Source: an uncultured virus (IMG/VR IMGVR_UViG_3300033994_002454)
Taxonomy: Duplodnaviria; Heunggongvirae; Uroviricota; Caudoviricetes
Direction: 5' to 3' (one strand)
Length of the DNA stretch: 62,015 nucleotides
Virus record (IMG/VR): IMGVR_UViG_3300033994_002454
Span: 62,001-124,015 of that record
Part shown: positions 4,743 through 55,781 of the stretch, piece by piece
How the letters are laid out: each line of letters begins with the position of its first letter
Numbering within the stretch: position 1 is the stretch's first letter
The notes under the pieces: model-generated
What the model was told of the DNA's origin: nothing
Databases searched by the model: none
Seen by the model: only the letters and a program-made list of their open reading frames with translations
Made by a program: the position numbers and the translations under genes

Positions 4743-4743
4743 A

Positions 4744-11388: not shown

Positions 11389-11390
11389 TA

Positions 11391-11426
11391 CCTAAAGATA
11401 AAAAAAAGCTTGCGGTTAGGCAAGCT
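11391..11426 (-). terminator. intrinsic terminator overlapping a promoter-like TTG...TATCTTTA
   Basis: Sense AGCTTGC-CTAACC-GCAAGCT plus T run, then TATCTTTAG just before the nuclease ATG. Confidence 0.7.
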
Positions 11427-11443
11427 CTTCTGTAAAAGTATTT

Positions 11444-11677: not shown

Positions 11678-11685
11678 GAAATATA

Positions 11686-14790: not shown

Positions 14791-14799
14791 AACCGTATT

Positions 14800-14828
14800 A
14801 TACAAAAAAAGCTTGCACTAGGCAAGCT
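14800..14828 (-). terminator. intrinsic terminator overlapping promoter-like TTG...TATAAT
   Basis: Sense AGCTTGC-CTAGT-GCAAGCT plus T run; the upstream TAG stop lies in the loop. Confidence 0.7.
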
Positions 14829-16456: not shown

Positions 16457-18382
<1,926 letters not shown>

Positions 18383-18386
<4 letters not shown>

Positions 18387-23897: not shown

Positions 23898-24051
23898 GAT
23901 TTTCTTTTATGTTTTGAATTTCTTTATTTAACTTATTCCATTCTTGAATTACATCATCTCCAAGTTCAATTTTAGACATTATTGAAAGATCGATTACTTG
24001 GCCTTTAAGAAGATCAATTAATTCTTCTTGTTTTTGTTCTAACTCTGTCAT
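23890..24051 (-). CDS. hypothetical protein
   Basis: 53-aa ORF tightly packed in operon (MTELEQK...). Confidence 0.5.
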   Translation of the reverse strand: MTELEQKQEELIDLLKGQVIDLSIMSKIELGDDVIQEWNKLNKEIQNIKENHG

Positions 24052-24052
24052 A

Positions 24053-24280
24053 TTAAAATGGAGTTGAAGGGTCAATTAATTTCAATGCTTGAAGGGTTTC
24101 AAGTTTATCTTCAGCTTCAGCTAATTGGGCTACAAATTTGTCCATTTCTTCAAGGTGTTGTGGGTGTTCTCCAATACCAACTGAACTTGTAAAATAGATT
24201 GCTAGTGTTGCTTTTGCTTCAGCAATTTGGGCTAGATATTTTGACTCTAAAGCCTCATAGAGTAATTGTGTTTTGTCCAT
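24053..24280 (-). CDS. conserved-type small phage protein
   Basis: Y...VGIGEHPQ..EE.DK motif typical of T4-like phage small proteins. Confidence 0.6.
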   Translation of the reverse strand: MDKTQLLYEALESKYLAQIAEAKATLAIYFTSSVGIGEHPQHLEEMDKFVAQLAEAEDKLETLQALKLIDPSTPF

Positions 24281-24285
24281 AACTT

Positions 24286-24984
24286 TTAAATTTGGTGTCC
24301 ACCATTATTAATTTTAATACTATCGAAAAATTCCTTACGTGCTTGGTTATCGTTTTCAATAAACACACCTGATGCTTTGGTAGTAACCATAGAAGCACCT
24401 TGATGTTTTACTCCTCTACAAGATACGCAATTGTGAGTTGCTACTACTGTAACGATAATACCTCTATTTCCTTCACATACTTTGTTTACTGCATTGTGGA
24501 CTGCTGAGGTTAACTGTTCTTGAATTGCTCCTCTACGGCCAAATAATTCTACAATGCGGTTTAGTTTAGATAAACCAATTACTCGTCCACCTTCTCCAAC
24601 TACATAGCCAATATGAACTACTCCTCCAATTGTTTGGTGGTGGTGTGAACACATTGAAGTAACTGGGATATTTCGCTCAATTACAATGCCATCGTATCCG
24701 TCTGATGGAAATGAAGTAATATCTGACATTGCAGTATATCTACCTGCCCATAAGTCAAATACATAAGCTTTAGCTACTCGACGAGGTGTTTCTGATGAAT
24801 TTGGGTCGTTTCGCCAATCACATCCTAAAGCATCTAGGAATTGGCCGTAAGCAGCTTCTGCTTTATCAACCATATCCCATTTTTCTTTCTCAGTAAGGGG
24901 AAAACCAGGTGCAACTCCATTTGCAAAACCTACTTGTACACATTCTAGTTCTGTGTGTTTTTTTCTACGTGTGTTTTCTGACAT
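24286..24984 (-). CDS. folE: GTP cyclohydrolase I
   Basis: ETPRRVAK, SMCSHH, GLSKLNRIV, IQEQLT, HNCVSCRGV. Confidence 0.96.
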   Translation of the reverse strand: MSENTRRKKHTELECVQVGFANGVAPGFPLTEKEKWDMVDKAEAAYGQFLDALGCDWRNDPNSSETPRRVAKAYVFDLWAGRYTAMSDITSFPSDGYDGIVIERNIPVTSMCSHHHQTIGGVVHIGYVVGEGGRVIGLSKLNRIVELFGRRGAIQEQLTSAVHNAVNKVCEGNRGIIVTVVATHNCVSCRGVKHQGASMVTTKASGVFIENDNQARKEFFDSIKINNGGHQI

Positions 24985-25009
24985 ATAACTTAATTATTTT
25001 ATATAAATG

Positions 25010-25035
25010 TAATAAGGCCCCTTTAAGGGGCCAAA
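25010..25035 (-). terminator. hairpin terminator between fibre gene and folE
   Basis: Sense GGCCCCT-TAA-AGGGGCC then TTATTACATTT. Confidence 0.6.
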
Positions 25036-25061
25036 TTATTTTTTAAAAATGTTGGATTTTT

Positions 25062-26666
25062 TTATGCTAATGATCCTGATTTCCAAGCACCATCTAAATA
25101 AACATAAAAGAAATAGTTACTACCATCAACTCCAAATACCATTTCACCTTTTTTACCAGTATATGCTGGTGGGCCATCTAATACTTTAGGTAAAGCAAGC
25201 CCTCCAGATACTTCAAGAGATCCTGAAATTTTTCCATCACCTTTAATATCTACTGAACCTGTAATTTCTGTAGGTCCTGTTACTGTAACTGAACCTGTTG
25301 TAGAGGTTGAACCTGTAATTGAAACTGATCCTGTAAATGTTGTGTCTCCGTATAATACGTTTCCATCACAACAGAAAGTTGCAGTTTGAGTTGGAGTAGC
25401 TGAACCAGATCCCATTAAAATATCTGCACCATCAGGTTGCAAATCTGGGGTTTGGTTTCCAATATGAATTACAGGCATTGGGCTATATGCTGTAAGTGTT
25501 GGGGTTGAATACTCAATAATAGTAAGTGTTTGAGTCCATGTTGAACTTATATAGTTTACTGTTTGAGTAGTTCCTGTTATTGTATTGTATAATTGAAGTG
25601 TTCCTCCATTTGCAGCAGCAGATGCTGAAATGGCTGTTCTAACATCTCCATAAGAAGGATCTAACCAAGTGTAGTTAAGGAATACACTAGCAGATGGTTT
25701 TGAAAATCTAACTGACCCTTCATATCCATACCATGATGTTGCTTCATCTCCAGGACAATACATTTCAATACATCCTGTTACAATCAGCCCATCATGTAAA
25801 TTTGTAGGACCATATACATCTAATCCACCTGAAATTGTTACATCACTGTATAATGTAATTCCATCACAACAGAAAGAAGCAACTGGTGTTAAAGATCCGG
25901 TTCCAATTGGGTAGATTGGGGTAGCACCTGGGATAGGTGTTGGGAATCCTATTTGAACTAATGTTCCTGTAGCAATTTCAGGACCAGAAGCTGAAATGTA
26001 TGTAACTACACCATCAAAATCTGTTCCTGAGTATCCATAAGGGGCATATACTCCAGTAGCAGGATCATAAATGTAGCATACGTTGTTTGAAGAGGCAGCT
26101 GCAGCAGCAATTCCTGCTGTTAAATCTCCATATGTACTAAAGTTAATAGAAACATATTCAAATCCAGCTGGGGATGGAGTTGTACGACCATCAATTGCCC
26201 AGAAAATAGGGTTACCTTCGTCGTTATAGCAATTAATATCTAAACATCCACTAATAGTTACATCACCTGTAAAATCAGTATCACCTAATACTCCAAATGA
26301 ACCTGTAACTGTTGTATCTCCTTCAACTTCTACAGTCCAATCAGATCCTTCTGAACCTGTAACTGTTATTGAACTGGTGATACTCCAATATGAAGCGGAA
26401 GTTGATCCTGTGGTTGATTGTTGGTTTAAGCTTCCTGAACCAATAAGTAAAGATCCAGATTTTAAAATTAAATTTCCTTCGTTGATTAAAACATCTCCTT
26501 TATCAGTATCTAAAGATCCTGTAAGAGTAATAGAACCACTAAATGTGGTGTTAGAATCATTAAATTCTATTTCTTTTCCGGCAGGTGTAATGATAGTTAC
26601 ATTTCCTGTTAATCTAATATTATCACCTAAAGTAGGTTCAATATTATTAACTTTTAAAGTGCTCAT
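25062..26666 (-). CDS. fibre/spike-like virion protein
   Basis: MSTLKVNNI start, many TGS/ITGS repeats, GEM.F....FYVY..GAW C-terminus; late-type motif at 26677-26686. Confidence 0.7.
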   Translation of the reverse strand: MSTLKVNNIEPTLGDNIRLTGNVTIITPAGKEIEFNDSNTTFSGSITLTGSLDTDKGDVLINEGNLILKSGSLLIGSGSLNQQSTTGSTSASYWSITSSITVTGSEGSDWTVEVEGDTTVTGSFGVLGDTDFTGDVTISGCLDINCYNDEGNPIFWAIDGRTTPSPAGFEYVSINFSTYGDLTAGIAAAAASSNNVCYIYDPATGVYAPYGYSGTDFDGVVTYISASGPEIATGTLVQIGFPTPIPGATPIYPIGTGSLTPVASFCCDGITLYSDVTISGGLDVYGPTNLHDGLIVTGCIEMYCPGDEATSWYGYEGSVRFSKPSASVFLNYTWLDPSYGDVRTAISASAAANGGTLQLYNTITGTTQTVNYISSTWTQTLTIIEYSTPTLTAYSPMPVIHIGNQTPDLQPDGADILMGSGSATPTQTATFCCDGNVLYGDTTFTGSVSITGSTSTTGSVTVTGPTEITGSVDIKGDGKISGSLEVSGGLALPKVLDGPPAYTGKKGEMVFGVDGSNYFFYVYLDGAWKSGSLA

Positions 26667-26710
26667 TTTATTTTTCTTATAAATATAAAAAAAGGGTAGA
26701 AAATAATATT

Positions 26711-27493
26711 CTATACCCCTCTTTTAGTGTCAAATGCAATAATGTGGTCTCGTCCTGTCATATTGTACCCTTTTTCAGCACACATATCAAATACAAGTGG
26801 ATACATTTTAATTAACTCTTCTCTTGTATCACCAGCAGGCATAATAAAGGTTTTATGTTTTGGAATATCTAATGCAACTCTAAACGCTTCAATTTCAGCT
26901 AAATTTTCTTCAGTACCATCCCAAACTGGTTTGTAGTGGTAATCGGAATGATGAGTAATCATTTGTTTGATTGTATCTAATTTTAAGCGAAATTTATTGT
27001 GTTGATCAATCATTTTTTGATCCACAATCGCTCCTTGAGGCGTAACAGCACCAAGTACGGGTATAGAATTACCAAATTTAGGACTGAGCGATATAAGAGA
27101 TATAGGATAGTCAGTAGGAAGGAAATGAGAACCTTCGGTTTCAATAGTAATAATAATACCTCTTTCATATGCAAAATATGTTAATTCATTAACTAATTTA
27201 GGGTGCATTGTAGGTGAACCACCTGTTAACATCATTTCTTTAATATGAGGGTTTTCGTCATATATTTTGATAATGTCGTTAAATGTAAATGTTCCTTTTT
27301 CTGGGTGGATTGAGGTGTACCAACTGTCACACCAACCACCTTCACCAAAGAAACATCTATGAGTACAACCTGTTGTTCTAATTGCTATTGTAGGGCGTCC
27401 AAAACGAGATCCCTCGCTTTGAACACATCTATATAGTTCTACTATTGGTAAAACTTTGTTATAATCTTCTATTCTTCCTAATTTTGATTCCAT
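26711..27493 (-). CDS. queE: 7-carboxy-7-deazaguanine synthase (radical SAM)
   Basis: VQSEG...GRP..IRT.GC, LTGGSP, TIETEG, SLSPK; clustered with queD/queC. Confidence 0.93.
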   Translation of the reverse strand: MESKLGRIEDYNKVLPIVELYRCVQSEGSRFGRPTIAIRTTGCTHRCFFGEGGWCDSWYTSIHPEKGTFTFNDIIKIYDENPHIKEMMLTGGSPTMHPKLVNELTYFAYERGIIITIETEGSHFLPTDYPISLISLSPKFGNSIPVLGAVTPQGAIVDQKMIDQHNKFRLKLDTIKQMITHHSDYHYKPVWDGTEENLAEIEAFRVALDIPKHKTFIMPAGDTREELIKMYPLVFDMCAEKGYNMTGRDHIIAFDTKRGV

Positions 27494-27726
27494 AAATCTT
27501 TTACTTGCGATTCAGATAAAACTCCAGATTGTTTTTGAGCAACTTGCCCGTCTTTTAAAAATACAAGCGTAGGTACACTTTTTATACCATAAGCTGAGGT
27601 CATGCCAGGATCTGCATCCACATCAATAAATGCAACTGGGATTGTTTGCCCTACACGTTCCATAATCGGTTTAAAATTTTTACATGGTTGGCACCATGTT
27701 GCGCTGAAATAAAGTATTTCTTTCAT
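27478..27726 (-). CDS. thioredoxin
   Basis: FSATWCQPC, IKSVPTL. Confidence 0.92.
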   Translation of the reverse strand: MKEILYFSATWCQPCKNFKPIMERVGQTIPVAFIDVDADPGMTSAYGIKSVPTLVFLKDGQVAQKQSGVLSESQVKDLWNQN

Positions 27727-27794
27727 TTTGTTATTGTGTATATAAATTTAATATTACCAAAAGTGGTGGTTGTTGTATAATAACTATTCTCCAT
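27723..27794 (-). CDS. candidate 23-aa microprotein MENSYYTTTTTFGNIKFIYTITK
   Basis: Fills the queD-thioredoxin gap, has AAGTT-ATG context and ATGA coupling. Confidence 0.45.
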   Translation of the reverse strand: MENSYYTTTTTFGNIKFIYTITK

Positions 27795-28248
27795 AACTTG
27801 CTGAGTTTCTTTCATGTTCATAAACTTCAATTTTAGTGGCTTTAACTCTGCCGTTTGTTTCTACTGCTAGAAAATCATTTATTGTATGATATAAATATTC
27901 TGCAAATCGTTCACATCCTGTAGCAGGTAAAATTCGTAATTGTATAATACCTTCCGCATTCATTTGTTTAAATAAAGTTAAATGAGGATCATCTTCAGCT
28001 ATGATTGTAGTGTGGTCTAAAAGGTATGCAAAATAGTCTTTTGGAGACATACCTTCGATTTGTGTTTTTGCACGTTTCATACCACCAAAATCCCAAACCC
28101 AATTTCTTTCATCTAGTTCGCCTTCGAACCATACTCTAAATGAAACTGCATAACCATGTAAAAATTTACAATGTGTTCCATCTGCTTTCCATTGACGGAA
28201 ACATGTTGAGTAACCGTCAAATAATTTTGTTGAATTAAATTTTGCCAT
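27784..28248 (-). CDS. queD: 6-carboxy-tetrahydropterin synthase (QueD/PTPS family)
   Basis: HCKFLHGY, LDERNWVWDFG, LDHT, CE.FA, VYEHERNSA. Confidence 0.9.
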   Translation of the reverse strand: MAKFNSTKLFDGYSTCFRQWKADGTHCKFLHGYAVSFRVWFEGELDERNWVWDFGGMKRAKTQIEGMSPKDYFAYLLDHTTIIAEDDPHLTLFKQMNAEGIIQLRILPATGCERFAEYLYHTINDFLAVETNGRVKATKIEVYEHERNSASYGE

Positions 28249-28384
28249 TTTCATTTGTTTTTGGTTTACGTCCTCGTTTTTTAATTTCTGTATCAATATC
28301 AGAAAGATAAATTGTAATGTATTCAGGAGTGATTTGGTCTAATCCTACTCCAGTACAAACTTTAATTGTTTTTTTCTTTTCCAT
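28235..28384 (-). CDS. small hypothetical protein with KKRGRKPK
   Basis: 49-aa ORF with AAAGTT-ATG context. Confidence 0.5.
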   Translation of the reverse strand: MEKKKTIKVCTGVGLDQITPEYITIYLSDIDTEIKKRGRKPKTNENGKI

Positions 28385-28418
28385 AACTTTTTGGTATAAT
28401 TCCCAGTCTAATATACAA

Positions 28419-29366
28419 CTATCCTTCATGTGTTTCAAGTACTTTTGTTACTTCTTTTACTACATGGTTCCATGTTACAGGACCTTCTTCGTCTGCATAT
28501 AATACAGGATCTTTTCTTCCTAGTTTAATAAATGCTTCTACACGTTCTACGGAACTTGCTGATTTGTAATCGGAAAACCATTCTTTGACTTCAACAATGT
28601 CATCTCCCTCTTCGTAAGCGAATTCATGGTAAATTGGTTTATATGAAGTGTTTGTACGTGAGTATACTTCGTTAAAATCAAGTCCTAATTCACTACATAA
28701 TTTTTCTCCATCTTGCAAAATAATAAATTTGTCTCCATCAAGATAAGGTGTAAAGTAACCTACTTTTTCAGAACCCCAGTTACCTACTCTAAAGGCATGG
28801 TCATCTGCATCTCTAAATTCTTGTCTACAATCAGGATAAATTGCATGGTCACCTGCATGTATTCCAAGTGCAATATCACATTGTTCACCTGTTTTATCTG
28901 CAATTGAAAGTGCAACTGCTTGAACAATAGAAGCAAATATTTTGTTTCGGTTAGGAACAACTGTTGCTTTCATATTTTCTTCAGCATAGTGTCCTTCAGG
29001 TACTTCATCTCCACCTGTTACTAAAGCTGAGTTGAGTAAGTCTGTTAATCCGTCTAATTTGATGACACGATAAGTGATAGGGGATGCTTCGCCTTTTACT
29101 TCTTTAATCATATCACTAAAACCTTCCGGAGTTATACCATGAAATTTCAATAAATCATTTTGAATTTGATCTAAATTTCCTGTTACTTTAATTTTGGTTT
29201 CATTAATGTAATCTACCAACGATTTAGCTCGTTCAAGCTCAACTCGATGTTTTTGTCCATAATCAAATGAAATTGCTGTTACTGTGTCGTATTCTTTTAG
29301 ACAGCGTAACAAAAGTGTGCTGGAATCCATTCCTCCAGACAGGGAAATTACTACATGTTTTTCCAT
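28419..29366 (-). CDS. queC: 7-cyano-7-deazaguanine synthase
   Basis: SLSGGMDS, FDYGQKH..E, TVVPNRN, YPDCRQEF. Confidence 0.95.
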   Translation of the reverse strand: MEKHVVISLSGGMDSSTLLLRCLKEYDTVTAISFDYGQKHRVELERAKSLVDYINETKIKVTGNLDQIQNDLLKFHGITPEGFSDMIKEVKGEASPITYRVIKLDGLTDLLNSALVTGGDEVPEGHYAEENMKATVVPNRNKIFASIVQAVALSIADKTGEQCDIALGIHAGDHAIYPDCRQEFRDADDHAFRVGNWGSEKVGYFTPYLDGDKFIILQDGEKLCSELGLDFNEVYSRTNTSYKPIYHEFAYEEGDDIVEVKEWFSDYKSASSVERVEAFIKLGRKDPVLYADEEGPVTWNHVVKEVTKVLETHEG

Positions 29367-44408: not shown

Positions 44409-45359
44409 TTATAAATCGCTCCAATCAGCTGTTGATTTTGAATAATCTGTTACTCGGTTTGCAAAGAAATCTTGATGTGTTTTTCCGCTTGTTAAATGGT
44501 TAAACCATTCCATTTCTCTCATTAAATTAGGATCTACATCATTGTAAAGTGGACTATAACCTAATTCGTTTAATTTTTCGTTTGCACGTGCTTTAATAAA
44601 GTTTTTTAATTGGTCTTTTGATAAACCTTCAATATCCCCCATTTCAAATGCTTTGTCTATAAAGTCAAATTCTAGATTAACTGAAACTTCACATGCTTTG
44701 TAAATTTCCCCCATCAATTTATGGTCATCTAAATCTGGGTTTTCACTAACTAATGTTCTGAATAGCCAGCATCCTGCTTTTGAATGTAATGACTCGTCAC
44801 GTACGCTCCATTCTACAATTTGACCTGTACCTTTCATTAGGTTACGCAATTGAAATGACATCAAAACAGCAAATGAAGAAAACAAATTTACACCTTCTGT
44901 AAATGCAGAAAATATAGCTAATGAAAGTGCCTTTTCATGTAATGTTTCTCCAGGTGTTTCAACTAAACGATCAATTTTTGCTTTAGCTTCTTCGTCTTCT
45001 AAAAACGCTTTAAAATCATCTAAACCAAGTTCTTCATTTAAACGAGCATATGCTTCAGCATGGATGCTTTCAAAATCAGCAAATACACGAGCCATTGCTT
45101 GTACTTCAGGTTTTGGAAACCATAAAGATACTTTTGTTGACCAATAGTCGTTTACATGTATTTCTGTTTGAGCAAATGACTTTAAAATGTTTCCGATTAA
45201 ATTTCGTTCAGAATCGTTTAATTTAAGTTTCCAGTCATTTAAGTCTGAAGCTAAGGGTACTTCATCAGCTAACCAATGTGCTCTGTGTTGATCTTTGTAG
45301 AAATCAAACGCCATTTGGTATTCAAATGGTTTATAAAAATTACGCGGTTCTGTTATCAT
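44409..45359 (-). CDS. nrdB: ribonucleotide reductase beta subunit
   Basis: ESIHAEAY, EGVNLFSSF, RDESLH, DFF. Confidence 0.96.
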   Translation of the reverse strand: MITEPRNFYKPFEYQMAFDFYKDQHRAHWLADEVPLASDLNDWKLKLNDSERNLIGNILKSFAQTEIHVNDYWSTKVSLWFPKPEVQAMARVFADFESIHAEAYARLNEELGLDDFKAFLEDEEAKAKIDRLVETPGETLHEKALSLAIFSAFTEGVNLFSSFAVLMSFQLRNLMKGTGQIVEWSVRDESLHSKAGCWLFRTLVSENPDLDDHKLMGEIYKACEVSVNLEFDFIDKAFEMGDIEGLSKDQLKNFIKARANEKLNELGYSPLYNDVDPNLMREMEWFNHLTSGKTHQDFFANRVTDYSKSTADWSDL

Positions 45360-46708
45360 GTATTTAGTTCAAAAAATTTACTTGCTAGCATTTTTCTGTC
45401 AATGTTTTCGTATTCCTCATTCGACATTTTCTTTGGAGCATCAGTTTCTTCGTCATAATGGTTTCCTACTTTAATTCTACCGGTTGAAGTATCAACTTCA
45501 ACTTGGAAGGTAAGTCCATCCATTCCATATCGGTTTTTCATAATGTGAAGTCTTCCTGTTCCGTTAACTTTATCTTCTTTCTTTCTTGATAATGAAATTG
45601 AAAGGTCGGTTATCATCATTTTATCATAACTTCCTGCGGCTTTATCGCCTTCAATAACATCATCTTTAGCTCCTGCGCGATTTACTTGTGAAACTGACCA
45701 AATTGGTATGTTTAATTCACGAGCTAATCCCTTGGTGCTTGTATAAATATCATCAATTTCTTCTTTGCGATCGCCTCTTTTTCGTCTTGAAGAAAGAAGA
45801 TCAATATAATCTATAATGATAAGATCTGGTGTGATTCCTAAATCTTTTACTTTATTTATGTGTGCTTCTATTGTAGAAATTGTGGTTTTTCCCATCGGAA
45901 ATTCACGAATAATCAATTCACCTGGTAAGTCAGAAGTTGATGCTTCTACGTTATTTTTATGTTTTTCTAATTGGTCAACAGGTACACCTGTAAAGAAAGC
46001 GTCATATCGTCTTCCAGTATATGCTTCACTTAATTCTAAAGTGTAGTGGATAACATTGTATCCCATTTTTACTGCATAACCACCTAAAGCAACTAATGTC
46101 CAAGATTTACCTCCTCCAGGATTACCAAAAATTAAACCTAAATCTCCATTACCTAAACCACCTTGAATTAATTCATTGATTTCAGGCCAAGGAGTAGGTA
46201 CTATTGTTCTATGATCTTCACGGTAACGTGATTCAGTATCTTTTTTATATTCGTGTCCAATGTTTTTGTCAGCACCTGCTTTCATTGCTGATTCAATCAT
46301 ATATTTGATTGAGTCGTAGTCACCTGCTTTTAGTAAGTCAACACTATTTAATAGTGCTTTTTTTAACTGTTGATTTTTACAGAATGTAGAAAATTCTTCT
46401 TGCACATAAGCTAAATCTTCAATGTCTGCTCTATATGCTTCTCGTAACTGTTCTTTAACAGATACTTTAAGCACTTCATTGCCCAACTTTTTCATTTCAA
46501 CTTTTAAAATATCCATTGAAATGGTTGTATGGTACTTTTCGTAGTACTTAAGAATCTCGTTTATAACCCATTTATGAGCCGGATTACTAAAGTATTCATC
46601 ACTTAGTACGTCGTTTATGTTTTGTAAAAATTCTTTATGTGTTAATAAAGAAGAAATTACTTTCATCTGGAACGATGGTCCGTATTCATCAATTGATTGT
46701 AATGTCAT
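45356..46708 (-). CDS. replicative DnaB-like helicase (T4 gp41-like)
   Basis: GNPGGGKS, TLEL, IIDYID, SQVNR, KNRYG. Confidence 0.93.
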   Translation of the reverse strand: MTLQSIDEYGPSFQMKVISSLLTHKEFLQNINDVLSDEYFSNPAHKWVINEILKYYEKYHTTISMDILKVEMKKLGNEVLKVSVKEQLREAYRADIEDLAYVQEEFSTFCKNQQLKKALLNSVDLLKAGDYDSIKYMIESAMKAGADKNIGHEYKKDTESRYREDHRTIVPTPWPEINELIQGGLGNGDLGLIFGNPGGGKSWTLVALGGYAVKMGYNVIHYTLELSEAYTGRRYDAFFTGVPVDQLEKHKNNVEASTSDLPGELIIREFPMGKTTISTIEAHINKVKDLGITPDLIIIDYIDLLSSRRKRGDRKEEIDDIYTSTKGLARELNIPIWSVSQVNRAGAKDDVIEGDKAAGSYDKMMITDLSISLSRKKEDKVNGTGRLHIMKNRYGMDGLTFQVEVDTSTGRIKVGNHYDEETDAPKKMSNEEYENIDRKMLASKFFELNT

Positions 46709-46736
46709 TTTATAACTTTTATTTAAATTTAATAAC

Positions 46737-47768
46737 TTATTGTCGGGTAACCAACAAATCTTTAAAAACATCTTGAACCCAAAATTCAGTATTTCGAATT
46801 AAGTTTCCAATTTGATCTTCGTTGCACATTTCAACAAACATGTTAGGTACAAAATTTAATGGAGTGTTTACAACGAAGTTATCTATAAATATTTTATCTG
46901 CATCACTTATCATAGGATTAGATAAGTCCATAACTTTATATTTATCTTCTAATAGGGGAACATCATGTAATACTCTTGCATATACAACATGTTCTTTTAA
47001 TTTAGCTTCCGCTATATCTAGCAAATCATCAAACGACAAATCACGTTCAGCTAATTCAGGAAATTTTTTAAATAAACCTTTAGGTCCTAATCCCTTAATA
47101 CCTGTGATTCCATCAGAATTATCACCCATTAATAACTTGTATAACAAGAAATTGTGTGGGGGCACATTAAATTTTTCTTTTACAGTATCTGTAGTATAGT
47201 ATTCTTTTTCAATTGGGCGATAAACAATTACTTTTTCGGTTACTAACTGTAAATAATCTTTATCACTGGATACTATGAATACTCTATCTTCAGGTTTTGT
47301 AGGTAATGTAGCACTTAAGTATGCGATAATATCATCTGCTTCTACTCGAGGTAAGGATATTGTTTTAACAGGTAATGTCTTTAAGTATTGGATAATTCGA
47401 ACAATTTGATCTACTTTAGAGTCATCTTCTTCTTCTAAACTATCAAATAATTCATGTTTAGTTACTCGAGTTACATTTCTGTTTGATTTGTATTCAGGAA
47501 TAATGTTTTTTCTATTATTGGAGGAACCCACACCATCAAACACAACATAAACTTGTGTTGGTTGGATGGTGCGAATTAAAGCCCCCAAAGAACGAAAAAA
47601 TCCTCCTAAACCTCCAATGTGGACTCCATTTGAATTGACGGCATTAATTGCACTAAAATTTCGAAAGAAGAGATTGAGTCCATCTATAAGCAGGTAGCGC
47701 TCCGATTGTGGGGTTTCTTCCCCGTGTTCTTGTATGTTATCTAAGAGGTTTAAGAGGTCTTTTTTCAT
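46737..47768 (-). CDS. 5'-3' exonuclease (Pol I N-terminal/T4 RNase H-like)
   Basis: LIDG, VFDG, YKSNR, EADD, SSDKD, GDNSDGI.G.KG.G. Confidence 0.93.
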   Translation of the reverse strand: MKKDLLNLLDNIQEHGEETPQSERYLLIDGLNLFFRNFSAINAVNSNGVHIGGLGGFFRSLGALIRTIQPTQVYVVFDGVGSSNNRKNIIPEYKSNRNVTRVTKHELFDSLEEEDDSKVDQIVRIIQYLKTLPVKTISLPRVEADDIIAYLSATLPTKPEDRVFIVSSDKDYLQLVTEKVIVYRPIEKEYYTTDTVKEKFNVPPHNFLLYKLLMGDNSDGITGIKGLGPKGLFKKFPELAERDLSFDDLLDIAEAKLKEHVVYARVLHDVPLLEDKYKVMDLSNPMISDADKIFIDNFVVNTPLNFVPNMFVEMCNEDQIGNLIRNTEFWVQDVFKDLLVTRQ

Positions 47769-47769
47769 A

Positions 47770-48855
47770 TTAATCTTCGTTTTCAAATAAATCAGGTGTT
47801 GGTGCTTTTTCGTCCCACTCACTATTATCTTCCTGTAATGTATAATTACCTTGTCCTAAAATATCTGCCCATTCATGTGAATGTGCATCTTTGTATTTTT
47901 TAATTGCGTTTGGATCATCTTTAATAAATCCATGTACTGTTGAAACAATAGTACCCATTGTTGTAATACCGTTGATGTGGTTTTTATCACAAGCAATTTT
48001 TGTACGCAATGCAAATTCAACTTTTTTCTTGTCCTTAACAGCGTTAAGTTTAGAAGTACCAGCATTTGTAACATTTCCAAAAGTTAAACATAGTGAAACG
48101 TCATAGTAAAATGTATCTCCACCTTTATTTGTCATCCTAGGTTGTGACATAGGAGTTAAAGCCGGAGCAACACCTACTTTGTTTACAATAAACAAGGTAT
48201 TCGTGTATTTTGAACTTTCTTTACGAGACATTACAATCTGTTGATTGATAAAATTACCGAATTGAGTTGCAATTGCTCCTGCATTCCACATTGGATTATT
48301 TTTACCTTGTTCAATTGACATTTGACATGGAATTGAACCAACTGAATCCCAAATGAATAGTAGATCATATGGTAAATTACCTTTTTTCTGTTCAGTTAAT
48401 AAGTCAATGATGAACTCAGCAATGTCCTCAATTGAATTCAATGAACTTCTATCTCGATAAATAAAGAAACCTGTTTGGTCTATAACTTCACCAGTTTCCA
48501 TATCAACTACATCCTCAATTTCAAAACCCATTGTTTTCCAGTGATTCCAATCGTGTTTCATTTCGGTAATGATTAACACAGGTAATATTCCCATCTTTTG
48601 AGCATTAACTGCAATTTCGATAGTCATAGTTGATTTACCTGTGTTACTTTTACCTCGAACCATTGAATTATGACCCATAGGAATACCAGGGATGGACAAT
48701 GCTTCTTGAAGAGCAGGTGAAAATGGAATCCACCTTTGCTCTTTGAATTTAACATTTGATGCTAAACCCTTATTTGCTTTAAATTTATCTAAATTGAACG
48801 CGGATTTTAGTTCATTACCCGCCGCTTCAGTAAGCGATTTTCTTCCTCTAGCCAT
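47770..48855 (-). CDS. RecA/UvsX-like recombinase
   Basis: GIPMG, GKSNTGKS, WDSVG, KGG, KNH. Confidence 0.85.
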   Translation of the reverse strand: MARGRKSLTEAAGNELKSAFNLDKFKANKGLASNVKFKEQRWIPFSPALQEALSIPGIPMGHNSMVRGKSNTGKSTMTIEIAVNAQKMGILPVLIITEMKHDWNHWKTMGFEIEDVVDMETGEVIDQTGFFIYRDRSSLNSIEDIAEFIIDLLTEQKKGNLPYDLLFIWDSVGSIPCQMSIEQGKNNPMWNAGAIATQFGNFINQQIVMSRKESSKYTNTLFIVNKVGVAPALTPMSQPRMTNKGGDTFYYDVSLCLTFGNVTNAGTSKLNAVKDKKKVEFALRTKIACDKNHINGITTMGTIVSTVHGFIKDDPNAIKKYKDAHSHEWADILGQGNYTLQEDNSEWDEKAPTPDLFENED

Positions 48856-48870: not shown

Positions 48871-49695
48871 TTAAAATGGAGCATCATCATCATCTTCACC
48901 AAACAAATCATCAAATGCTTCTGCTTTTGATTTTTTAGCTGCTGGTTTGGTGGATAAGCTGTAATTTGATTTTGGTTCTTCTTTTACTTCATCTTCAACC
49001 TCTGCCAAAACTTCTTCTTCATCTGCCTCAGGGTTTAACCACTCTTGAAGCGCTTGTTTGATTGTATCAAATGGAAGTGGCTTGTACATATCTTTTGGAT
49101 TTTCTTGTTCCTCTAACCATTTTTCAATTTGTTTAGAATCTTCAGACAATGCAGACATTTTCATTGACGGAGCAATAGTTGTTTTATTGTAAGCGGTTCC
49201 TGTTGATTCAGGTCCTACAGTAACTAACTTAATGTCTCTACCAGACATAACATCTGTAAAATCACCTACTTCTTCATCAGCAGCCATTTGTAAGAACGCT
49301 TCGTAAATTTCTTTACCAAATTCCCACATTTGAACACCTTCAGCTTCTTCACCACGTACAATTACAGGAGCATAGATACGAGTTTTCGGATCTAATTTTT
49401 TAGCTAAACGCCAATTTTCTTTGTCGTTTGTTCCACGAAGTTGTTTTGCAAATTCTGCAATTGGATCTTTTTCACCCCAGTTTAAAGGAGAAGCAATTAC
49501 TTTACGGCTTCCAATTCCGTAATAAAATTTCATTTCCGTAAATGGAAATTCCTTATTGTATTTAAAAGGTACAATACGGATTGTTTGTTTGCCAATTGTT
49601 GGTTTAAAACGCTTGACGTTACTTGAATTGTTAGATCCTCCATTAGAGGTCTTTTGCATTGATTCAAGTTTTTTCTTGATTGCATCGAGATTCAT
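48871..49695 (-). CDS. single-stranded DNA-binding protein (T4 gp32-like)
   Basis: IRIVP, DPIAEF, VIVRG, W.FGK, GRD, acidic DDDDAPF tail. Confidence 0.85.
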   Translation of the reverse strand: MNLDAIKKKLESMQKTSNGGSNNSSNVKRFKPTIGKQTIRIVPFKYNKEFPFTEMKFYYGIGSRKVIASPLNWGEKDPIAEFAKQLRGTNDKENWRLAKKLDPKTRIYAPVIVRGEEAEGVQMWEFGKEIYEAFLQMAADEEVGDFTDVMSGRDIKLVTVGPESTGTAYNKTTIAPSMKMSALSEDSKQIEKWLEEQENPKDMYKPLPFDTIKQALQEWLNPEADEEEVLAEVEDEVKEEPKSNYSLSTKPAAKKSKAEAFDDLFGEDDDDAPF

Positions 49696-50223: not shown

Positions 50224-51471
50224 TTATTTAATATCGTTGTAGTTTTTACCTTGTTTTACTTTAATTTGTAATTTTTTGTCTTTAAATACCTGTTTTATCT
50301 GTTCTATCATATCTATTTCACTTTCATCTACATCAAATAAAAACGAATCGTACACATATAGTACGAGTTTAGTATTTTTTCCTCGCAAAATCTTAAATAT
50401 CTCATATAATATAAGAACATTATTTGCGGTCTCCAAATTTTGTAGTACGTAATTTAAAAGCTTTTGTGGATTCATATTTTCCAGATCCTTTTTCATAAAT
50501 TTATGATTTGAAATGGGGCATTTAATGTATCCGTTTGTGTTAAATGTTTTCCACAAATCATCTGTATATGTTTTTACTTGTCGAAAAAAGTCCAAGGTTT
50601 CGTATTCCTTCCATATTCCTCCATAAAGCTGTTTAAACGTGATCTCTTTCGCTTTGGTGTAATCCACACCATACATTTTAGAAAAAGATAAGTGGATATC
50701 GTCACTACCAAAGTCGTAACCGCAAAGACTAGCCAAAAGGGTAGGGTGATAAGCAGATATGTCAAACTCAATAAAACTCTCATTACGGGGTATAAAGCAT
50801 TTTCTTTCTTCATTGTCTTTGTTTAGGGCTGAAAAGTTAATAGTATTAAATGTATTTGATGGTCTTGTTGTTAATGTGTTTAAATTGTATTGCGTGTATA
50901 CAAATTCATCTACTTGTTGATCGAAGTACTCCTCGAACAATAATGGATCTACTTTAATACCCGCTCGTTCTAGTTGATTAAACACAAGTGCTGCTTTATT
51001 GTAAAATGGGTTTATTTCACCTTTAAAGTTAGCATAGTTTTGTTCACATACCTCATAGTGTTTTACGATCGGTACTATTGTGTTTAAATATTGTATATTT
51101 GGATACTTGTTGTAAATGTGTGTGTGAGCCGTTGTTTGTTGAGGTATATACGTATGGGGGGAGGGTGAGTATTGGTAACAATGCTTAAGGCAAAAATAAT
51201 GTAAAAATTCCTTTCTATCCCTTACGTAAATGTTTTTTATACTGTTTAATACTTTTAAACAATCATCTATTGTAGAATTTATTGTTTCGCTATGGTTGAT
51301 TGGGATAATATATCCTTTTAAATCATCCCTTGGACGAATGTAAAGAGCACATACTTCATTTTCAACAGGGTGTAAGTTGTGTGAAGTTGGAATTACTTCA
51401 ACATAAGCAACTTCGTGTCTTGCTCTTGCTAAAATGTCTATATGTTTAGGATCTTCTATAAGCCAATACAT
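50224..51471 (-). CDS. short divergent family A DNA polymerase-like protein
   Basis: T.T.R.SN, R.CF.P, motif A DISAYHP, motif B KEITFKQLYG, NY.LQ, motif C YVYDSFLFD. Confidence 0.8.
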   Translation of the reverse strand: MYWLIEDPKHIDILARARHEVAYVEVIPTSHNLHPVENEVCALYIRPRDDLKGYIIPINHSETINSTIDDCLKVLNSIKNIYVRDRKEFLHYFCLKHCYQYSPSPHTYIPQQTTAHTHIYNKYPNIQYLNTIVPIVKHYEVCEQNYANFKGEINPFYNKAALVFNQLERAGIKVDPLLFEEYFDQQVDEFVYTQYNLNTLTTRPSNTFNTINFSALNKDNEERKCFIPRNESFIEFDISAYHPTLLASLCGYDFGSDDIHLSFSKMYGVDYTKAKEITFKQLYGGIWKEYETLDFFRQVKTYTDDLWKTFNTNGYIKCPISNHKFMKKDLENMNPQKLLNYVLQNLETANNVLILYEIFKILRGKNTKLVLYVYDSFLFDVDESEIDMIEQIKQVFKDKKLQIKVKQGKNYNDIK

Positions 51472-51494: not shown

Positions 51495-52103
51495 TTAGGA
51501 TTCCACGTAATATTTTAAAAACTTGTCTTGAAAATATTGAGAGAACCCATACCATTTTAAGTTTTGCTCTATAGCAACAGCAGATGCTTTATTTGATTTA
51601 TAAACTTGTTCTTTATTGCCTACAATTTGCCAATTTAATATAGCAGGAGTATACAGATCCCATGCTATTTGAGGGTCTTGATTTGCAAGTTTTTTGTATG
51701 TATTTAAATCAATTTCTAGATATTGTATTTCATTATTTTTTTTACAAAAATACCTTGTAAATTGTTTATTTTGTTGGTCCTGAGGAGTGGGTATAGTTGG
51801 GTTAAATAAGGGGATAAATCTTTCTTGAAGGAGAGACAAATTATATTCTAAATCTATAGTTTCAAGGGTTATTATTGGAGGTATGACATTGTTAGTAACT
51901 CCTGTATTAAAAATGTTAGAAAATTGGTTATTAATAGGGATTAAAAGAATATTAGGTGGGTTTTGAGGATTTTTTCCAGTAAATTTACTTCCATTTGAAA
52001 CTTCATAGTAATATCCAGTATATATCTCGTTAGTAGAAGAAAGTTTATAAGCATCACCATTAGTGAAAAGATTAGTTTTTATTTGAGATTTTGGGTAATA
52101 CAT
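51495..52103 (-). CDS. hypothetical (probably virion) protein
   Basis: YYPKSQI, Y.GYY, FTRYFCKK.N; end of baseplate block. Confidence 0.6.
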   Translation of the reverse strand: MYYPKSQIKTNLFTNGDAYKLSSTNEIYTGYYYEVSNGSKFTGKNPQNPPNILLIPINNQFSNIFNTGVTNNVIPPIITLETIDLEYNLSLLQERFIPLFNPTIPTPQDQQNKQFTRYFCKKNNEIQYLEIDLNTYKKLANQDPQIAWDLYTPAILNWQIVGNKEQVYKSNKASAVAIEQNLKWYGFSQYFQDKFLKYYVES

Positions 52104-52112
52104 AAAAATTTA

Positions 52113-55100
52113 TTATCTATTGGGAATTACATAATCGGCCATTCGTTTTACATCAGGTTCATATGTTTTTCCTTTATTATAATTATACCTAAAAGTAAAA
52201 TCAATACATATTAATTTATCTATATTTCTTTCTCCACCATCCCAAACATTTTTTAAATTTTTAGCATAAGCTTGAAAATATCCTGGTCCATTATATCTAG
52301 CTCTATACCACATATATCTTGTTCTTACATCACTTAAAATAAGATTTTTAAGTTCAGGATGAGTTTTAAAATTACCATTTAACATTGTGTAAAATGATTC
52401 TTCAACTATTTTATATTTAAGTTCTTTAAGTCTTTCAAGATCTTTTTTCCATTGGGTTTGATTAATGTTTCTTCCACCCCAATAAGGATCTTTATCAGGA
52501 TAATGAAGATTATCATATTTCCATCCTTTATCTTGATAATTTTTATAAATTAACCCTCCTGGACTTTTCCACTTTTGCCAGCCGCTCCATTTTTTGCCAT
52601 ATTTTAAACTAAGGGATGAAAAGGCTCCAAACCCAGAATATTTATCTACTATACTCCAAAATTCTCGTTTATTAGCAGTGCCGTCTCCATCACCAGCAAA
52701 TCTATCTTCTCCCCAAAGAGTTTCTCCTGAAGCTCCCATTCCTACTCCTCCTGGTTTAGGGGATACATTATTTTCAGATGTATATACAACATATTGGATA
52801 GGATGAAAGTATCCTCCTTCATTTTTTCCTCTAATAAAGTCAATAACAGATTTATCAGTATTTTGAATACCTTTGTAATTAAGATAATTAATGTTTCTTG
52901 ATTTTAAAATAGATCTTTCTGAAGATAATATTCCATTGCCTTGAGGAATACTACTGCATGATTTTACATTTCCTGAGGTTGATGCTGCTTGAACTGCTTG
53001 AGAATATGTTTGGTAAATAGGGTTTGAAACTGTTTGATCAATTTCAGTAATATCTCCTGTTTTAGGAATAACAGTTGCTTCTATTTCAGTTTCCCAATCA
53101 TTATTTGCTAACTTATGGTTTACCCCAGTAACAATTAAATTTAAATTGTCACCATACGCTTTGGGTAAAAATCGAGTATCAACTTGTAATTTACTATATA
53201 TTTTTATACCCGATATTCCATCCATAACAAATGAAATTTTAAATGGTATAAATCCAATTGTTCCTCCTGATTTTATACCATTAGAAGCCATTGTATATTT
53301 GTTATATTCTGTTACTATAGAAATATTTTTATCTATAATATCAGAAGAAATAGAAACTTTATTATTGTCATCATTTCCAAATCCATAAAGTCTTGCAACC
53401 TTTCCTCCATAGTAATTTTTATTATAGTTTACAACAGCTTCATCTTCTGAGCCCGAAACTGAAGAAGAAGGAGGGGCTGAGTTTGGATTTCCAGGTATAA
53501 GGGATTCTTTAAATCTATCAGTTAATCCAACATTCCATTTTGAAAATGCAGTTGCTTCAACTCCTTTAACATATCCTCCAGCAGTTGCTCCTACAGTAAT
53601 CATAGTAGCATACTCTGGGGTTATGGCTGTTTTTAAGTCGACTTTTCTAACAAAATTAGATTCATATAAGTTTCCATTTTTTTTATATCCATATAATTGG
53701 AGGATATAATTTGAGACATCATTTTGGTTTAACCCAGGGATAGGGGTTGTATCTACAATACTAAGAACATTACTATTTTCATCAACTACTGGTTCTAGGT
53801 TGTTTACTCCACCTAAAGCTTTATTTAAACCATCACATATTGATTTTAAAAAGTTATATACATTAACATCTCCCCTTTCATCGGCATTTGAACTTATGCA
53901 TTCCGTAATAAAGTCAAAATTCAAATAAATATTCATAGGGGTTGCTACATTTTTATTTTCTGTAACTTGAAAAGGAAAAATTTCTGGGAGGACTTTATAT
54001 TTGCCTCCTAAAGAATCATTTCTTACTAAACAAACTCTTGGGTCTAAAGAAACTTGACTTTTTAAAGTAAACATAACATTGTTTTCTTCACTGTAATCAA
54101 TATTTACAATTGGAGGTCTACTTGCATAGTCAGAATTACCATCATCTATTTTTGGAAATATATCTTCAACAAGATATTTTAATAAAGCTCCAAATCTAAG
54201 ATAATATGGATAAGTAGGTATACTTAGAAAAAAACAATCTTCACATCCAAAATTTCTAATAGGGTTTTCAGCAGAAACTGTAGTAGAATTTAATTTTTTG
54301 TAAGCTACATAGATATAATAATAATCCCATCCAGGATCTGCTATTTCTCTTACAGTGCCTGCTCTATCATTAGCTACTTCATATCTTACTTTAGCACTAT
54401 TCCAAATTTTTACAACAGGATATTCACCTTCTTTAGGGTTTTTAGTTTTTGTTGCTAAAGCATCTTCTAATGATTTTTGTTTTTGAGTAATTGCAGCTTC
54501 AAGCACACTAGGAGAATTTGATGAAAGCTCTTCTTTTACTGGTTGGAACCATTCACTTTTAGCTTCTGGGTGAACTTTAGAAAGTTCTAAAGCATTTTTT
54601 CCTGATAATCCTGCTGAAAGTTTTTTTGAAGATATCTTATAATAAAATTCTACTGTAGTAGTTTGGGCTTCAACAGTTTTTCCTCCAGGAGGAATAAAAG
54701 TTCCCATATTTTTTAAATCAGTAAATGTAACTTGAAGTTCTTTAGGGATTTGTTTAACGTATTCTGGGTTTTCAAAATTTCTATTGGTCCATTTCCATGT
54801 CCACAACATAGCATATAGAGCATTAGAACTTTTATTATCTTCTATTATGTTGGGGTTATTTGAAGATTCGTTTGTAGAGGTACTACCTTGAAAAGAAGTT
54901 TGGTTGTTAATTTTACTAGCTTCTTCTTCGGATAAAGAAATTGAACCTATTTCTGTAAACTTTTTAAAACTTTGAGGGATCGAAATATTAGTTTTTAATG
55001 ATTCAATAACATCACCTAAACTTATTATAGTAATTTCTATACTATATGATCCATCAGGTTGAAATGCCCAACTAAAATTAGATACTTTACCTAAAAGTCC

Positions 55101-55781
55101 ATCGTAGTTTCCTGCATATTTTTGTCTGTAGGTTTCAATAGGGGTTAACATATCTAGATATGACTTTTTTTCACCTAAATCAAAAAACGTTTTTTCAAGT
55201 AATGTCTCACGTAATATGTCTCTATCTACCCCATTAGCAGTAAAAAGACTATTTCCCCATTCAAGTAAAACAGTATATCCTAGTCTTAAATATAAAAGAT
55301 CTATAATATCAAATTGTTGTTTATTATGAGCAATTAGTCTAACTGTTGCTTTTTTAATTGAACCCCTATTTAATGATTTTATATCAGCACTTAAAATACC
55401 AGGCATAGGAGAATATCCATATGTTCCATAAGTATATGAACTATTTGGATCTTGGGGGAGAAAGCCTTGTCGTTGAATTAATCTATCAGTTCCATCTTGT
55501 TCTAATCTAGAAAATCCAGCATGTAAAATATATTTTTTTGCTAAACCCATTCCATTAAGGGAAGTAGATACCCCTATATCCGTTAACCTTTCAGCACTTA
55601 CTGAAATTCCAGAGGCTAATTTTACCCAAGCTGTATTAGAATTTAAAAGATTAATTTGTTGGTCGGTTCTAGAAAATGATGATTTATCATTAGCAGTTCC
55701 AGCACCACTTCCATGAAGTAGTTGTCTAACAACTATTTGATTTGCAACATATCCTGGGATTGGTTCTCCGATAATAGCCAT
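52113..55781 (-). CDS. baseplate hub-like protein with C-terminal muramidase-like domain
   Basis: PMPGI.S, LRLGYTVLLEWG, NYDGLLG.V.NFSW, DGISGI, VNH.L...WET; EGGY/GET motifs in C-terminal domain. Confidence 0.65.
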   Translation of the reverse strand: MAIIGEPIPGYVANQIVVRQLLHGSGAGTANDKSSFSRTDQQINLLNSNTAWVKLASGISVSAERLTDIGVSTSLNGMGLAKKYILHAGFSRLEQDGTDRLIQRQGFLPQDPNSSYTYGTYGYSPMPGILSADIKSLNRGSIKKATVRLIAHNKQQFDIIDLLYLRLGYTVLLEWGNSLFTANGVDRDILRETLLEKTFFDLGEKKSYLDMLTPIETYRQKYAGNYDGLLGKVSNFSWAFQPDGSYSIEITIISLGDVIESLKTNISIPQSFKKFTEIGSISLSEEEASKINNQTSFQGSTSTNESSNNPNIIEDNKSSNALYAMLWTWKWTNRNFENPEYVKQIPKELQVTFTDLKNMGTFIPPGGKTVEAQTTTVEFYYKISSKKLSAGLSGKNALELSKVHPEAKSEWFQPVKEELSSNSPSVLEAAITQKQKSLEDALATKTKNPKEGEYPVVKIWNSAKVRYEVANDRAGTVREIADPGWDYYYIYVAYKKLNSTTVSAENPIRNFGCEDCFFLSIPTYPYYLRFGALLKYLVEDIFPKIDDGNSDYASRPPIVNIDYSEENNVMFTLKSQVSLDPRVCLVRNDSLGGKYKVLPEIFPFQVTENKNVATPMNIYLNFDFITECISSNADERGDVNVYNFLKSICDGLNKALGGVNNLEPVVDENSNVLSIVDTTPIPGLNQNDVSNYILQLYGYKKNGNLYESNFVRKVDLKTAITPEYATMITVGATAGGYVKGVEATAFSKWNVGLTDRFKESLIPGNPNSAPPSSSVSGSEDEAVVNYNKNYYGGKVARLYGFGNDDNNKVSISSDIIDKNISIVTEYNKYTMASNGIKSGGTIGFIPFKISFVMDGISGIKIYSKLQVDTRFLPKAYGDNLNLIVTGVNHKLANNDWETEIEATVIPKTGDITEIDQTVSNPIYQTYSQAVQAASTSGNVKSCSSIPQGNGILSSERSILKSRNINYLNYKGIQNTDKSVIDFIRGKNEGGYFHPIQYVVYTSENNVSPKPGGVGMGASGETLWGEDRFAGDGDGTANKREFWSIVDKYSGFGAFSSLSLKYGKKWSGWQKWKSPGGLIYKNYQDKGWKYDNLHYPDKDPYWGGRNINQTQWKKDLERLKELKYKIVEESFYTMLNGNFKTHPELKNLILSDVRTRYMWYRARYNGPGYFQAYAKNLKNVWDGGERNIDKLICIDFTFRYNYNKGKTYEPDVKRMADYVIPNR

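Follow-up and report, generated by a model that had tools for sequence, protein, structure and literature searches.

The window analyzed here, a 62,015-nt stretch of DNA that makes up the latter half of a virus record of 124 kb (IMG/VR IMGVR_UViG_3300033994_002454, Caudoviricetes; GC content 32%, estimated completeness 77%), encodes on its minus strand a 415-amino acid protein (P0001) that almost certainly belongs to divPolA1, a group of divergent family A DNA polymerases that was first recognized computationally (Yutin et al, 2024; Virol J 21:200). Every divPolA1 trait listed in the text of that paper is found in the window protein, and the present result is, hence, a confirmation and extension of the 2024 description, not a discovery; the novelty implied by the initial annotation of this DNA does not hold. 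Judged from its sequence, divPolA1 is very probably an active DNA polymerase. The explanation favored here, if with some reserve, is that of a distributive, proofreading-free enzyme which aids a replisome built on a family B DNA polymerase (PolB) and a sliding clamp with gap filling or recombination-linked synthesis.

Against Pfam, the protein scored 25.7 bits for DNA_pol_A (PF00476), where the curated cut-off is 34.3 bits, and along residues 294–411 only; no other Pfam family was matched at E ≤ 0.01. By Pfam's own rule, it thus falls outside PF00476, whereas the profile matches given below make it a divergent member of the superfamily. Among the PHROGs, it matched phrog_17 “DNA polymerase” (E 3.4e-09). 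When the single sequence was searched against the sequences of the PDB with phmmer, zero matches were obtained at E ≤ 1; when a profile of the family was used, Klenow polymerase was matched at E 1.6e-09, and 59 of 60 matches were family A polymerases. Because of this profile match, together with a fold match at Z 26.8 (see below), the similarity to family A polymerases is beyond chance, despite the Pfam score below the cut-off.

The family is large. A word-indexed search with the polymerase returned 4121 proteins at E ≤ 0.001, and an exhaustive search of representatives at 50% identity returned 1132 at E ≤ 0.001, of which 429 had E ≤ 1e-30; the full-length matches were nearly all 399–471 amino acids long. 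From 150 listed representatives, 86 full-length rows were chosen for the family alignment (fragments left out; mean column identity 35%), and the residue counts given below refer to these 86. In tblastn, eight phage records were matched, including a Microcystis phage; with gene 1 of Flavobacterium phage immuto (MW353176), the polymerase shared 36% identity at a coverage of 99% (E 6e-79). The ratio of nonsynonymous to synonymous substitution rates (dN/dS) relative to three close relatives was 0.18, 0.18, and 0.22, which excludes unconstrained decay of the gene in all three pairs.

The structure predicted by AlphaFold2, with the 86-sequence alignment as input, was of high confidence (predicted local distance difference test [pLDDT] 95.9, predicted TM score [pTM] 0.93). 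All of the 50 best Foldseek rows were family A DNA polymerases, with 1kfd at the top (E 9.9e-18, TMq 0.68) and Klenow, apicoplast Pol, mycobacterial Pol1, Bst, Taq, Pol nu, and Pol theta among the matches. With VIA-align, the best match was the POL domain of Mycobacterium smegmatis Pol1 (6vdd_A; Z 26.8, root-mean-square deviation [rmsd] 3.1 Å, 381 of 415 residues aligned); the best 50 entries, all of them Pol I large fragments, ranged from Z 26.8 to 25.1 with 343–397 residues aligned, and each spanned the model from residue 1 or 2 to residue 414 or 415. RNA polymerases were found neither among the best 50 rows of Foldseek nor among those of VIA-align. Superposition on Klenow-type folds, which the initial annotation had put forward as a check, thus bore out its assignment of a shortened family A polymerase, the second polymerase in a genome with a PolB replisome.

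Because the fold matches span the whole model, the N-terminal domain corresponds to the exonuclease-like domain of the Pol I large fragment. Loss of the exonuclease residues was judged by alignment columns: no column among the 86 relatives was ≥70% Asp or Glu at residues 7–61, and the first β strand (21–28), where the Exo I motif sits in this fold, therefore carries no conserved acid. In agreement with the lack of a clear 3′-5′ exonuclease triad noted initially, this activity of the polymerase is predicted to be non-functional. The conserved acids left in the domain (E6, E/D62, D/N85, and D100) appear, by eye, to match non-catalytic positions of Pol I. The window protein itself carries Gln at residue 100 (nt 51172..51174), which is Asp in 73 of the 86 relatives.

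A full thumb subdomain, as is typical of family A, is lacking. Positions 170–198 of the family profile align to residues 205–233 of the Klenow chain and positions 203–313 to residues 323–445; since Klenow advances from 233 to 323 while the profile moves from 198 to 203, ∼90 thumb residues of Klenow are without counterpart. The model agrees with this loss, as only one short helix (176–183) lies between the ERAGIKVD motif and R203.

The 415-codon frame and its three motifs, DISAYH, YTKAKEITFKQLYG, and YDS, were all verified at their coordinates (Table 1), and the alignment to Pol I that had been drawn by eye was reproduced when the 86-sequence profile was aligned by hhalign to Escherichia coli PolA (from NC_000913.3; probability 95.7%, E 9.2e-09, PolA residues 647–908). 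All residue equivalences reported here derive from that alignment. R203 (R668 in PolA), the catalytic Asp residues of motifs A and C (D237, equivalent to D705, and D375, equivalent to D882), and K275 (K758) are invariant in 86 of 86. Q344 (Q849) and D380 (E887) are kept in 85 and Y283 (Y766) in 83, and F279 (F762) is Phe in 79, Leu in 6, and Met in 1. H260 (H734) is His in 56 and Tyr in 29, N340 (N845) is Asn in 65, Pro in 11, and Ser in 10, and Y374 (H881) is Tyr in 83 and Phe in 3. The catalytic Asp residues and the motif B Lys and Tyr that characterize family A are thus present, as had been stated for the former.

Other family A hallmarks, the Glu of the steric gate and the third carboxylate, are not present. 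In Klenow, E710 is the steric gate against ribonucleoside triphosphates and R754 contacts the triphosphate; E883, like R754, matters for activity. The gate position is occupied by H242 (His in 83, Gln in 3), R754 is replaced by Y271 (Tyr in 56, Arg in 11, Ile in 6, and Val in 4 among the types listed), and E883 is replaced by S376 (Ser in 60, Ala in 25, and Gly in 1, hence one of these three in 86 of 86, and never Asp or Glu). The exchange of the gate Glu for His and the loss of R754, both pointed out in the initial annotation, therefore extend to the family, and the replacements at E710, R754, and E883 are, as far as conservation tells, fixed family traits and not decay. E347 is also invariant in 86 of 86; it lies three residues past Q344, at an hhalign insertion relative to Klenow, and might be a spatial stand-in for E883. 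A literature search for His at the gate of family A polymerases (E615H, E710H, E658H, and E480H) yielded no paper.

Downstream of the polymerase gene and on the same strand follow p153 (a conserved companion gene, see below), a single-stranded DNA-binding protein (SSB), the recombinase UvsX, a 5′-3′ exonuclease/flap endonuclease (FEN), the helicase DnaB, and then two subunits of ribonucleotide reductase (RNR). It was already recognized from the first inspection that the gene heads this run and that PolB, a clamp candidate, and the clamp loaders are encoded elsewhere in the window (Table 1). The additional statement that no primase is visible holds for the window, but not for the genome: a DnaG-type primase of 309 amino acids, with zinc ribbon, DnaG_N, and Toprim domains (phrog_47, E 2.4e-48), is encoded in the half of the record that precedes the window (G000:C1:10210-11139). 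The polymerase itself had no match to a Toprim or AEP catalytic domain in Pfam. The phage, thus, encodes a complete T4-style replisome without divPolA1 as replicase or primase.

Table 1. Location of divPolA1, its domains and motifs, and the replication genes in the window (aa, amino acids).
Feature	Position (nt)	Strand	Basis
divPolA1-type family A DNA polymerase (P0001), 415 aa, ATG start	50224..51471	minus	open reading frame and translation
N-terminal domain (aa 1-130), vestigial 3′-5′ exonuclease-like fold	51082..51471	minus	model alignment from residue 1 to Bst, Taq, and M. smegmatis Pol I large fragments; boundary approximate
Thumb remnant (aa 131-200) with ERAGIKVD motif (aa 168-175), without long thumb helices	50872..51081	minus	profile alignment and model
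Palm and fingers (aa 201-415), with R203 (=R668) and invariant E347	50227..50871	minus	hhalign to E. coli PolA 647-908
Motif A, DISAYH (aa 237-242); catalytic D237, H242 at the Klenow E710 steric-gate position	50746..50763	minus	coordinates verified
Motif B (O-helix), YTKAKEITFKQLYG (aa 271-284); Y271 for R754; K275, F279, and Y283 kept	50620..50661	minus	coordinates verified
Motif C, YDS (aa 374-376); catalytic D375, S376 for E883	50344..50352	minus	coordinates verified
p153 (P0272), conserved companion, 153 aa	49757..50218	minus	ATG 5 nt past polymerase stop codon
gp32-type SSB	48871..49695	minus	Pfam gp32 6.4e-14; phrog_1192
UvsX/RecA-type recombinase	47770..48855	minus	phrog_97 4.1e-19; Pfam RecA 26.9 bits (cut-off 27)
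5′-3′ exonuclease/FEN, type of the Pol I N-terminal domain	46737..47822	minus	Pfam 5_3_exonuc_N 2.6e-35; phrog_107 2.1e-40
DnaB-type replicative helicase	45356..46771	minus	Pfam DnaB_C 7.2e-19; phrog_19 8.5e-81
Regular PolB with exonuclease domain, 909 aa	20172..22901	minus	Pfam DNA_pol_B 4.1e-28, DNA_pol_B_exo1 1.7e-15; phrog_262 8.8e-142
Candidate sliding clamp	18808..19542	minus	phrog_223 “DNA polymerase processivity factor” 2.9e-06 (weak match)
GroEL/GroES pair, adjoining clamp candidate and PolB	16457..18386	minus	gene scan of the window
Clamp loader, large subunit	13882..14805	minus	phrog_168 4.8e-73; Pfam AAA, DNA_pol3_delta2
Clamp loader, small subunit	12378..12815	minus	phrog_225 1.2e-16

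Eighty IMG/VR loci were fetched with the family alignment, and one gene order is kept in them wherever the DNA reaches: a tail-like gene of 1222 codons, a gene of 202 codons, the polymerase, p153, SSB, UvsX, FEN, DnaB, and RNR-beta. The module from the polymerase to DnaB is also present in Flavobacterium phage immuto, in Microcystis phage Mel-JY01, and in an uncultured phage of 484 kb. The regular polymerase differs: it is PolB in four of the five records checked, and in immuto, it is a regular PolA (778-amino acid frame, E 7.8e-58); PolC was found in none of three records. Two of the 80 loci (L043 10001..11210 and L057 189..1467) have the polymerase frame broken into two parts. The 202- and 1222-amino acid proteins encoded upstream of the polymerase in the window (51495..55781, minus strand) are without assigned family; baseplate genes lie beyond them, which suggests that they are tail parts. 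Both genes are also located upstream of divPolA1 in the 484-kb phage; in Mel-JY01, only the 202-amino acid one is.

The gene for p153 directly follows that of the polymerase in 77 of the 80 loci, and the two frames overlap in many. Of the exceptions, one locus ends inside the polymerase (L023), one had its frames dropped as they contain N (L030), and one has unrelated genes downstream (L010). In the last (11257..11969), whose polymerase is 92% identical, a membrane-like open reading frame (ORF) of 142 amino acids and another of 95 replace p153, and the contig ends there; a genome end could account for this arrangement, as could a rearrangement or chimerism of the assembly. Across the 38 loci with all six genes, the median identity to the window proteins was 52.9% for the polymerase, 65.9% for p153, 54.1% for SSB, 57.7% for UvsX, 58.5% for FEN, and 68.8% for DnaB. 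In every one of 71 loci, p153 had a higher identity than the polymerase, and across 76 loci p153 (dN/dS 0.10–0.11) is about as conserved as DnaB. The homologs that follow the polymerase in immuto and Mel-JY01 are 55% and 39% identical, respectively. In 7 loci (L024, L041, L089, L091, L021, L077, and L071), ORFs of 102–611 amino acids are inserted between polymerase, p153, and SSB; all 10 of them were searched against Pfam and none was a recognizable homing nuclease, nine being without family and one a carbamoyltransferase (L041 2818..4653).

No family could be assigned to p153: neither the single protein nor any of the 36 members of its alignment matched anything in Pfam or PHROGs below E 0.001, the best match of its profile to PDB sequences had an E of 1.2, and the ESM Atlas contained no usable match. 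Modeled alone with AlphaFold2, p153 was poorly predicted (pLDDT 57.6), the most conserved stretch (residues 91–131) having a pLDDT below 50; confidence was low on exactly the segment that is near-invariant, NTILVHRKKESNTLYTINALNELIKKLNGG. A wide VIA search with this model returned generic ferredoxin-like matches only, for residues 20–117 and with Z ≤ 7.0, which is the stated noise level. Prediction of a complex from the divPolA1 and p153 alignments gave scores of 0.00 and 0.00 relative to a mark of 0.32; with controls absent, this result is neutral either way. Seven longer proteins contain p153, each a singleton, and one of them carries a gp32 domain. Two of the seven join the two proteins, residues 188–409 of the polymerase to p153 in P0276 and residues 120–375 directly to the middle of p153 in P0278; both are N-terminally truncated singletons and, therefore, likely products of frameshift or assembly, which is why they were not counted as evidence for an interaction. 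The UvsY family had no match among the ORFs that were scanned in the window and the other half, and p153 could thus also be a recombination mediator rather than a partner of the polymerase.

Beside PolB, the window contains genes for a MazG-like pyrophosphohydrolase, FolE, a 534-amino acid ORF, a QueE-like protein, QueD, and QueC (23232..29366, minus strand). The preQ0 genes among them (24286..29366) and the GroEL/GroES pair flank PolB. For the 534-amino acid ORF inside the cluster (25062..26666), no match was found in PHROGs, in Pfam, or among phages by tblastn, and the Pfam TGT family revealed no candidate for DpdA in the 77%-complete record. From its gene content, the phage probably carries 7-deazaguanine DNA. 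QueC is encoded in four of five divPolA1-bearing records checked; it had no match in the complete, 190-kb genome of Mel-JY01, which contains both divPolA1 and p153. A link between divPolA1 and 7-deazaguanine DNA is, thus, possible, but not obligatory.

Some genes farther away are worth recording in their own right. A sugar-modification run, an unusual phage cargo, occupies positions 2..10178 (minus strand) of the window and encodes a NAD-dependent epimerase/dehydratase, two GT2 and two GT1 glycosyltransferases, a DegT-type aminotransferase, a hexapeptide acetyltransferase, and an FkbM methyltransferase. Two putative homing endonucleases are encoded outside the window, one of the SegE-type GIY-YIG kind (G000:C1:11163-11612), which adjoins the primase gene, and one of the T5orf172 kind (G000:C1 29915-30367).

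In the mechanism proposed here, divPolA1 would act as a template-dependent DNA polymerase with the fold of the Pol I large fragment minus the proofreading site and ∼90 thumb residues, presumably with low processivity. The processive replicase would be PolB with its clamp and clamp loader, and divPolA1 would synthesize short patches of DNA within the replication–recombination module headed by its gene. Such patches could fill gaps after the separate 5′-3′ exonuclease has stripped primers, which would amount to a Pol I split over two genes, and/or could extend recombination intermediates made by UvsX and SSB. A non-replicative helper role with gap filling in concert with the exonuclease had been one of the suggestions of the initial annotation; it stands as the most reasonable reading, although the specific role is one that we infer.

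Several observations weigh against this proposal. The Pfam score for DNA_pol_A is below the curated cut-off, and the activity could be low or altered, given that both E883 and R754 are replaced. The kept gene order reaches the upstream tail-like genes even in distant relatives, and the synteny may reflect whole-genome collinearity of one phage lineage, not functional coupling. The main point against a split Pol I is that immuto retains divPolA1 though its regular polymerase is a full family A enzyme, which argues that divPolA1 does something that a canonical family A enzyme does not. The same persistence keeps a bolder reading alive, namely that divPolA1 and p153 form a conserved core replicase or primer-extending polymerase, with p153 contributing thumb or processivity in trans and the regular polymerase being a swappable add-on. 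This is rather unlikely, but divPolA1 and its context are indeed constant while the regular polymerase varies between PolB and PolA, and regular polymerases of family A, B, or C are described in the text of Yutin et al (2024). The near-constant position of p153 after the polymerase, with a spacer of 5 nt here and overlapping frames in many loci, its higher conservation relative to the polymerase, and the failure of its most conserved part to fold confidently alone would all fit a dedicated partner. However, genomes of 124–484 kb are unlikely to rely for their main replication on an enzyme with neither proofreading nor thumb, and the window also encodes clamp loaders, a clamp candidate, and a PolB that has its own exonuclease domain. 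Moreover, neither family nor fold ties p153 to a known processivity factor, and the sole fused forms found are the two artefact-like, truncated read-throughs. Slightly less probable again is the full version of a two-part polymerase, in which p153 would serve as the thumb, His at the gate would make the choice of sugar less strict or shift it, and the pair would be the fixed, Pol alpha-like primer-extending and hand-off enzyme of the helicase–primase–SSB core; if true, it would explain why enzymes of families A, B, and C can replace one another as the processive polymerase while the rest of the replisome stays undisturbed.

The remaining alternatives concern the substrate and the activity itself. 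There is only a small chance that divPolA1 is a specialist for modified DNA that incorporates or copies 7-deazaguanine derivatives handled poorly by the main polymerase. The modification genes of the window and the occurrence of QueC in most of the records checked are in line with it, but Mel-JY01 dispenses with QueC, and the modification genes adjoin PolB and not divPolA1. Moreover, many polymerases tolerate 7-substituents, which point into the major groove. According to a preprint (10.1101/2023.04.13.536721), the DNA of immuto has 7-(formylamino)methyl-7-deazaguanine in place of all its dG, which again favors a specialist; Cellulophaga phage phiST and Campylobacter phage CP220, fully modified according to the same preprint, were not among the eight phage records matched by tblastn. 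That the enzyme makes RNA or tolerates ribonucleotides, as a primase, primer maker, or transcriptase akin to T7-type RNA polymerase, is very unlikely. With the gate Glu and R754 lost (H242 and Y271) and motif C being Asp-Ser, never Asp-Glu, the idea has its appeal, as Asp-Ser in motif C is a trait of T7-type RNA polymerases. The small gate residue of T7 RNA polymerase, though, makes room for the 2′-OH, whereas the gate is bulky here (His or Gln throughout). In the text of Yutin et al (2024), a role as RNA polymerase is raised for divPolA2, the sister group, whereas none is raised for divPolA1. Primer or RNA synthesis, which the initial annotation had suggested, is therefore disfavored by the bulky gate, by F279 and Y283 of the DNA polymerase type in motif B, by the retained minor-groove readers R203 and Q344, by the DnaG-type primase of the same genome, and by the lack of similarity to RNA polymerases, DNA_pol_A being the only Pfam family at E ≤ 0.01 and DNA polymerases the only folds among the best 50. 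Least probable of all is that the fold is catalytically dead and has been retained because it serves the replisome structurally or as a regulator. Replacement of E883 and R754 and absence of the thumb would be compatible with it, but R203, K275, E347, and the two metal-binding Asp residues show no variation among the 86 sequences, at a mean column identity of ∼35%, the pattern expected if the active site is under selection.

An active, accessory DNA polymerase thus remains the favored explanation, and the family deserves attention beyond this phage. It is spread among phages of aquatic bacteria, with Flavobacterium and Microcystis as the minimal host range, far beyond 14 genomes, and constitutes a natural experiment on the steric gate Glu, R754, E883, and loss of the thumb. 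The role of divPolA1 would bear on the free swapping of the main polymerase in the phages that carry it, and p153, conserved like a replicative helicase but without recognized fold, is an obvious target.

Among polymerases of known structure, the Bst large fragment, KlenTaq, and M. smegmatis Pol1 are the closest (rmsd 3.0–4.0 Å over model residues 1–415), and they have an inactive exonuclease-like domain and the palm and fingers motifs in common with the window protein. Relative to bacterial Pol I large fragments, the latter is ∼165–180 residues shorter, lacks the long thumb helices, and differs at the gate Glu (His), at R754 (Tyr), and at E883 (Ser); unlike bacterial Pol I, it is phage-encoded beside another polymerase. 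Cellular Pol I pairs the polymerase with a 5′-3′ nuclease for primer removal, which is here encoded by a separate gene three genes downstream. T7-type single-subunit RNA polymerases, too, descend from family A and have lost the gate Glu and gained Asp-Ser in motif C; the window protein differs from them by its bulky gate, by the lack of a Pfam match to them (E ≤ 0.01), and by the lack of a promoter-binding N-terminal domain. The divPolA2 of barbaviruses, as far as described in the text available, is likewise a second divergent family A polymerase without working exonuclease beside a regular PolB (Yutin et al, 2024), but it has an unrelated N-terminal globular domain, variable neighborhoods, and fold matches to RNA polymerases, none of which was seen for the window protein.

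The closest relative is divPolA1 itself, which was defined, according to the text of Yutin et al (2024), from 14 immuto-related phages of 155–190 kb. A literature search for “divPolA1” returned only versions of that paper, and no biochemistry was found in print; the accessible text of Czernecki et al (2023; PMC10201439) does not mention the group. Its defining features are a thumb that is truncated, a 3′-5′ exonuclease that is inactivated, and a palm whose catalytic residues are conserved. The window protein shares them, and it also shares the context of conserved downstream replication genes and of a regular polymerase (family A, B, or C) that is encoded separately, located with GroEL/GroES and nucleotide-modification genes; immuto has the same downstream gene order as the window and the same surroundings of its separate polymerase. 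The activity of divPolA1 is read there in the same way as here. The text of that paper does not discuss p153, the invariance of E347, His at the gate, or the replacement of R754 and E883, although its Figs 4B and 5 may display some of them. With 429 representatives, a phage of 484 kb, and a Microcystis phage, the group found here is considerably wider than the 14 phages given in that text.

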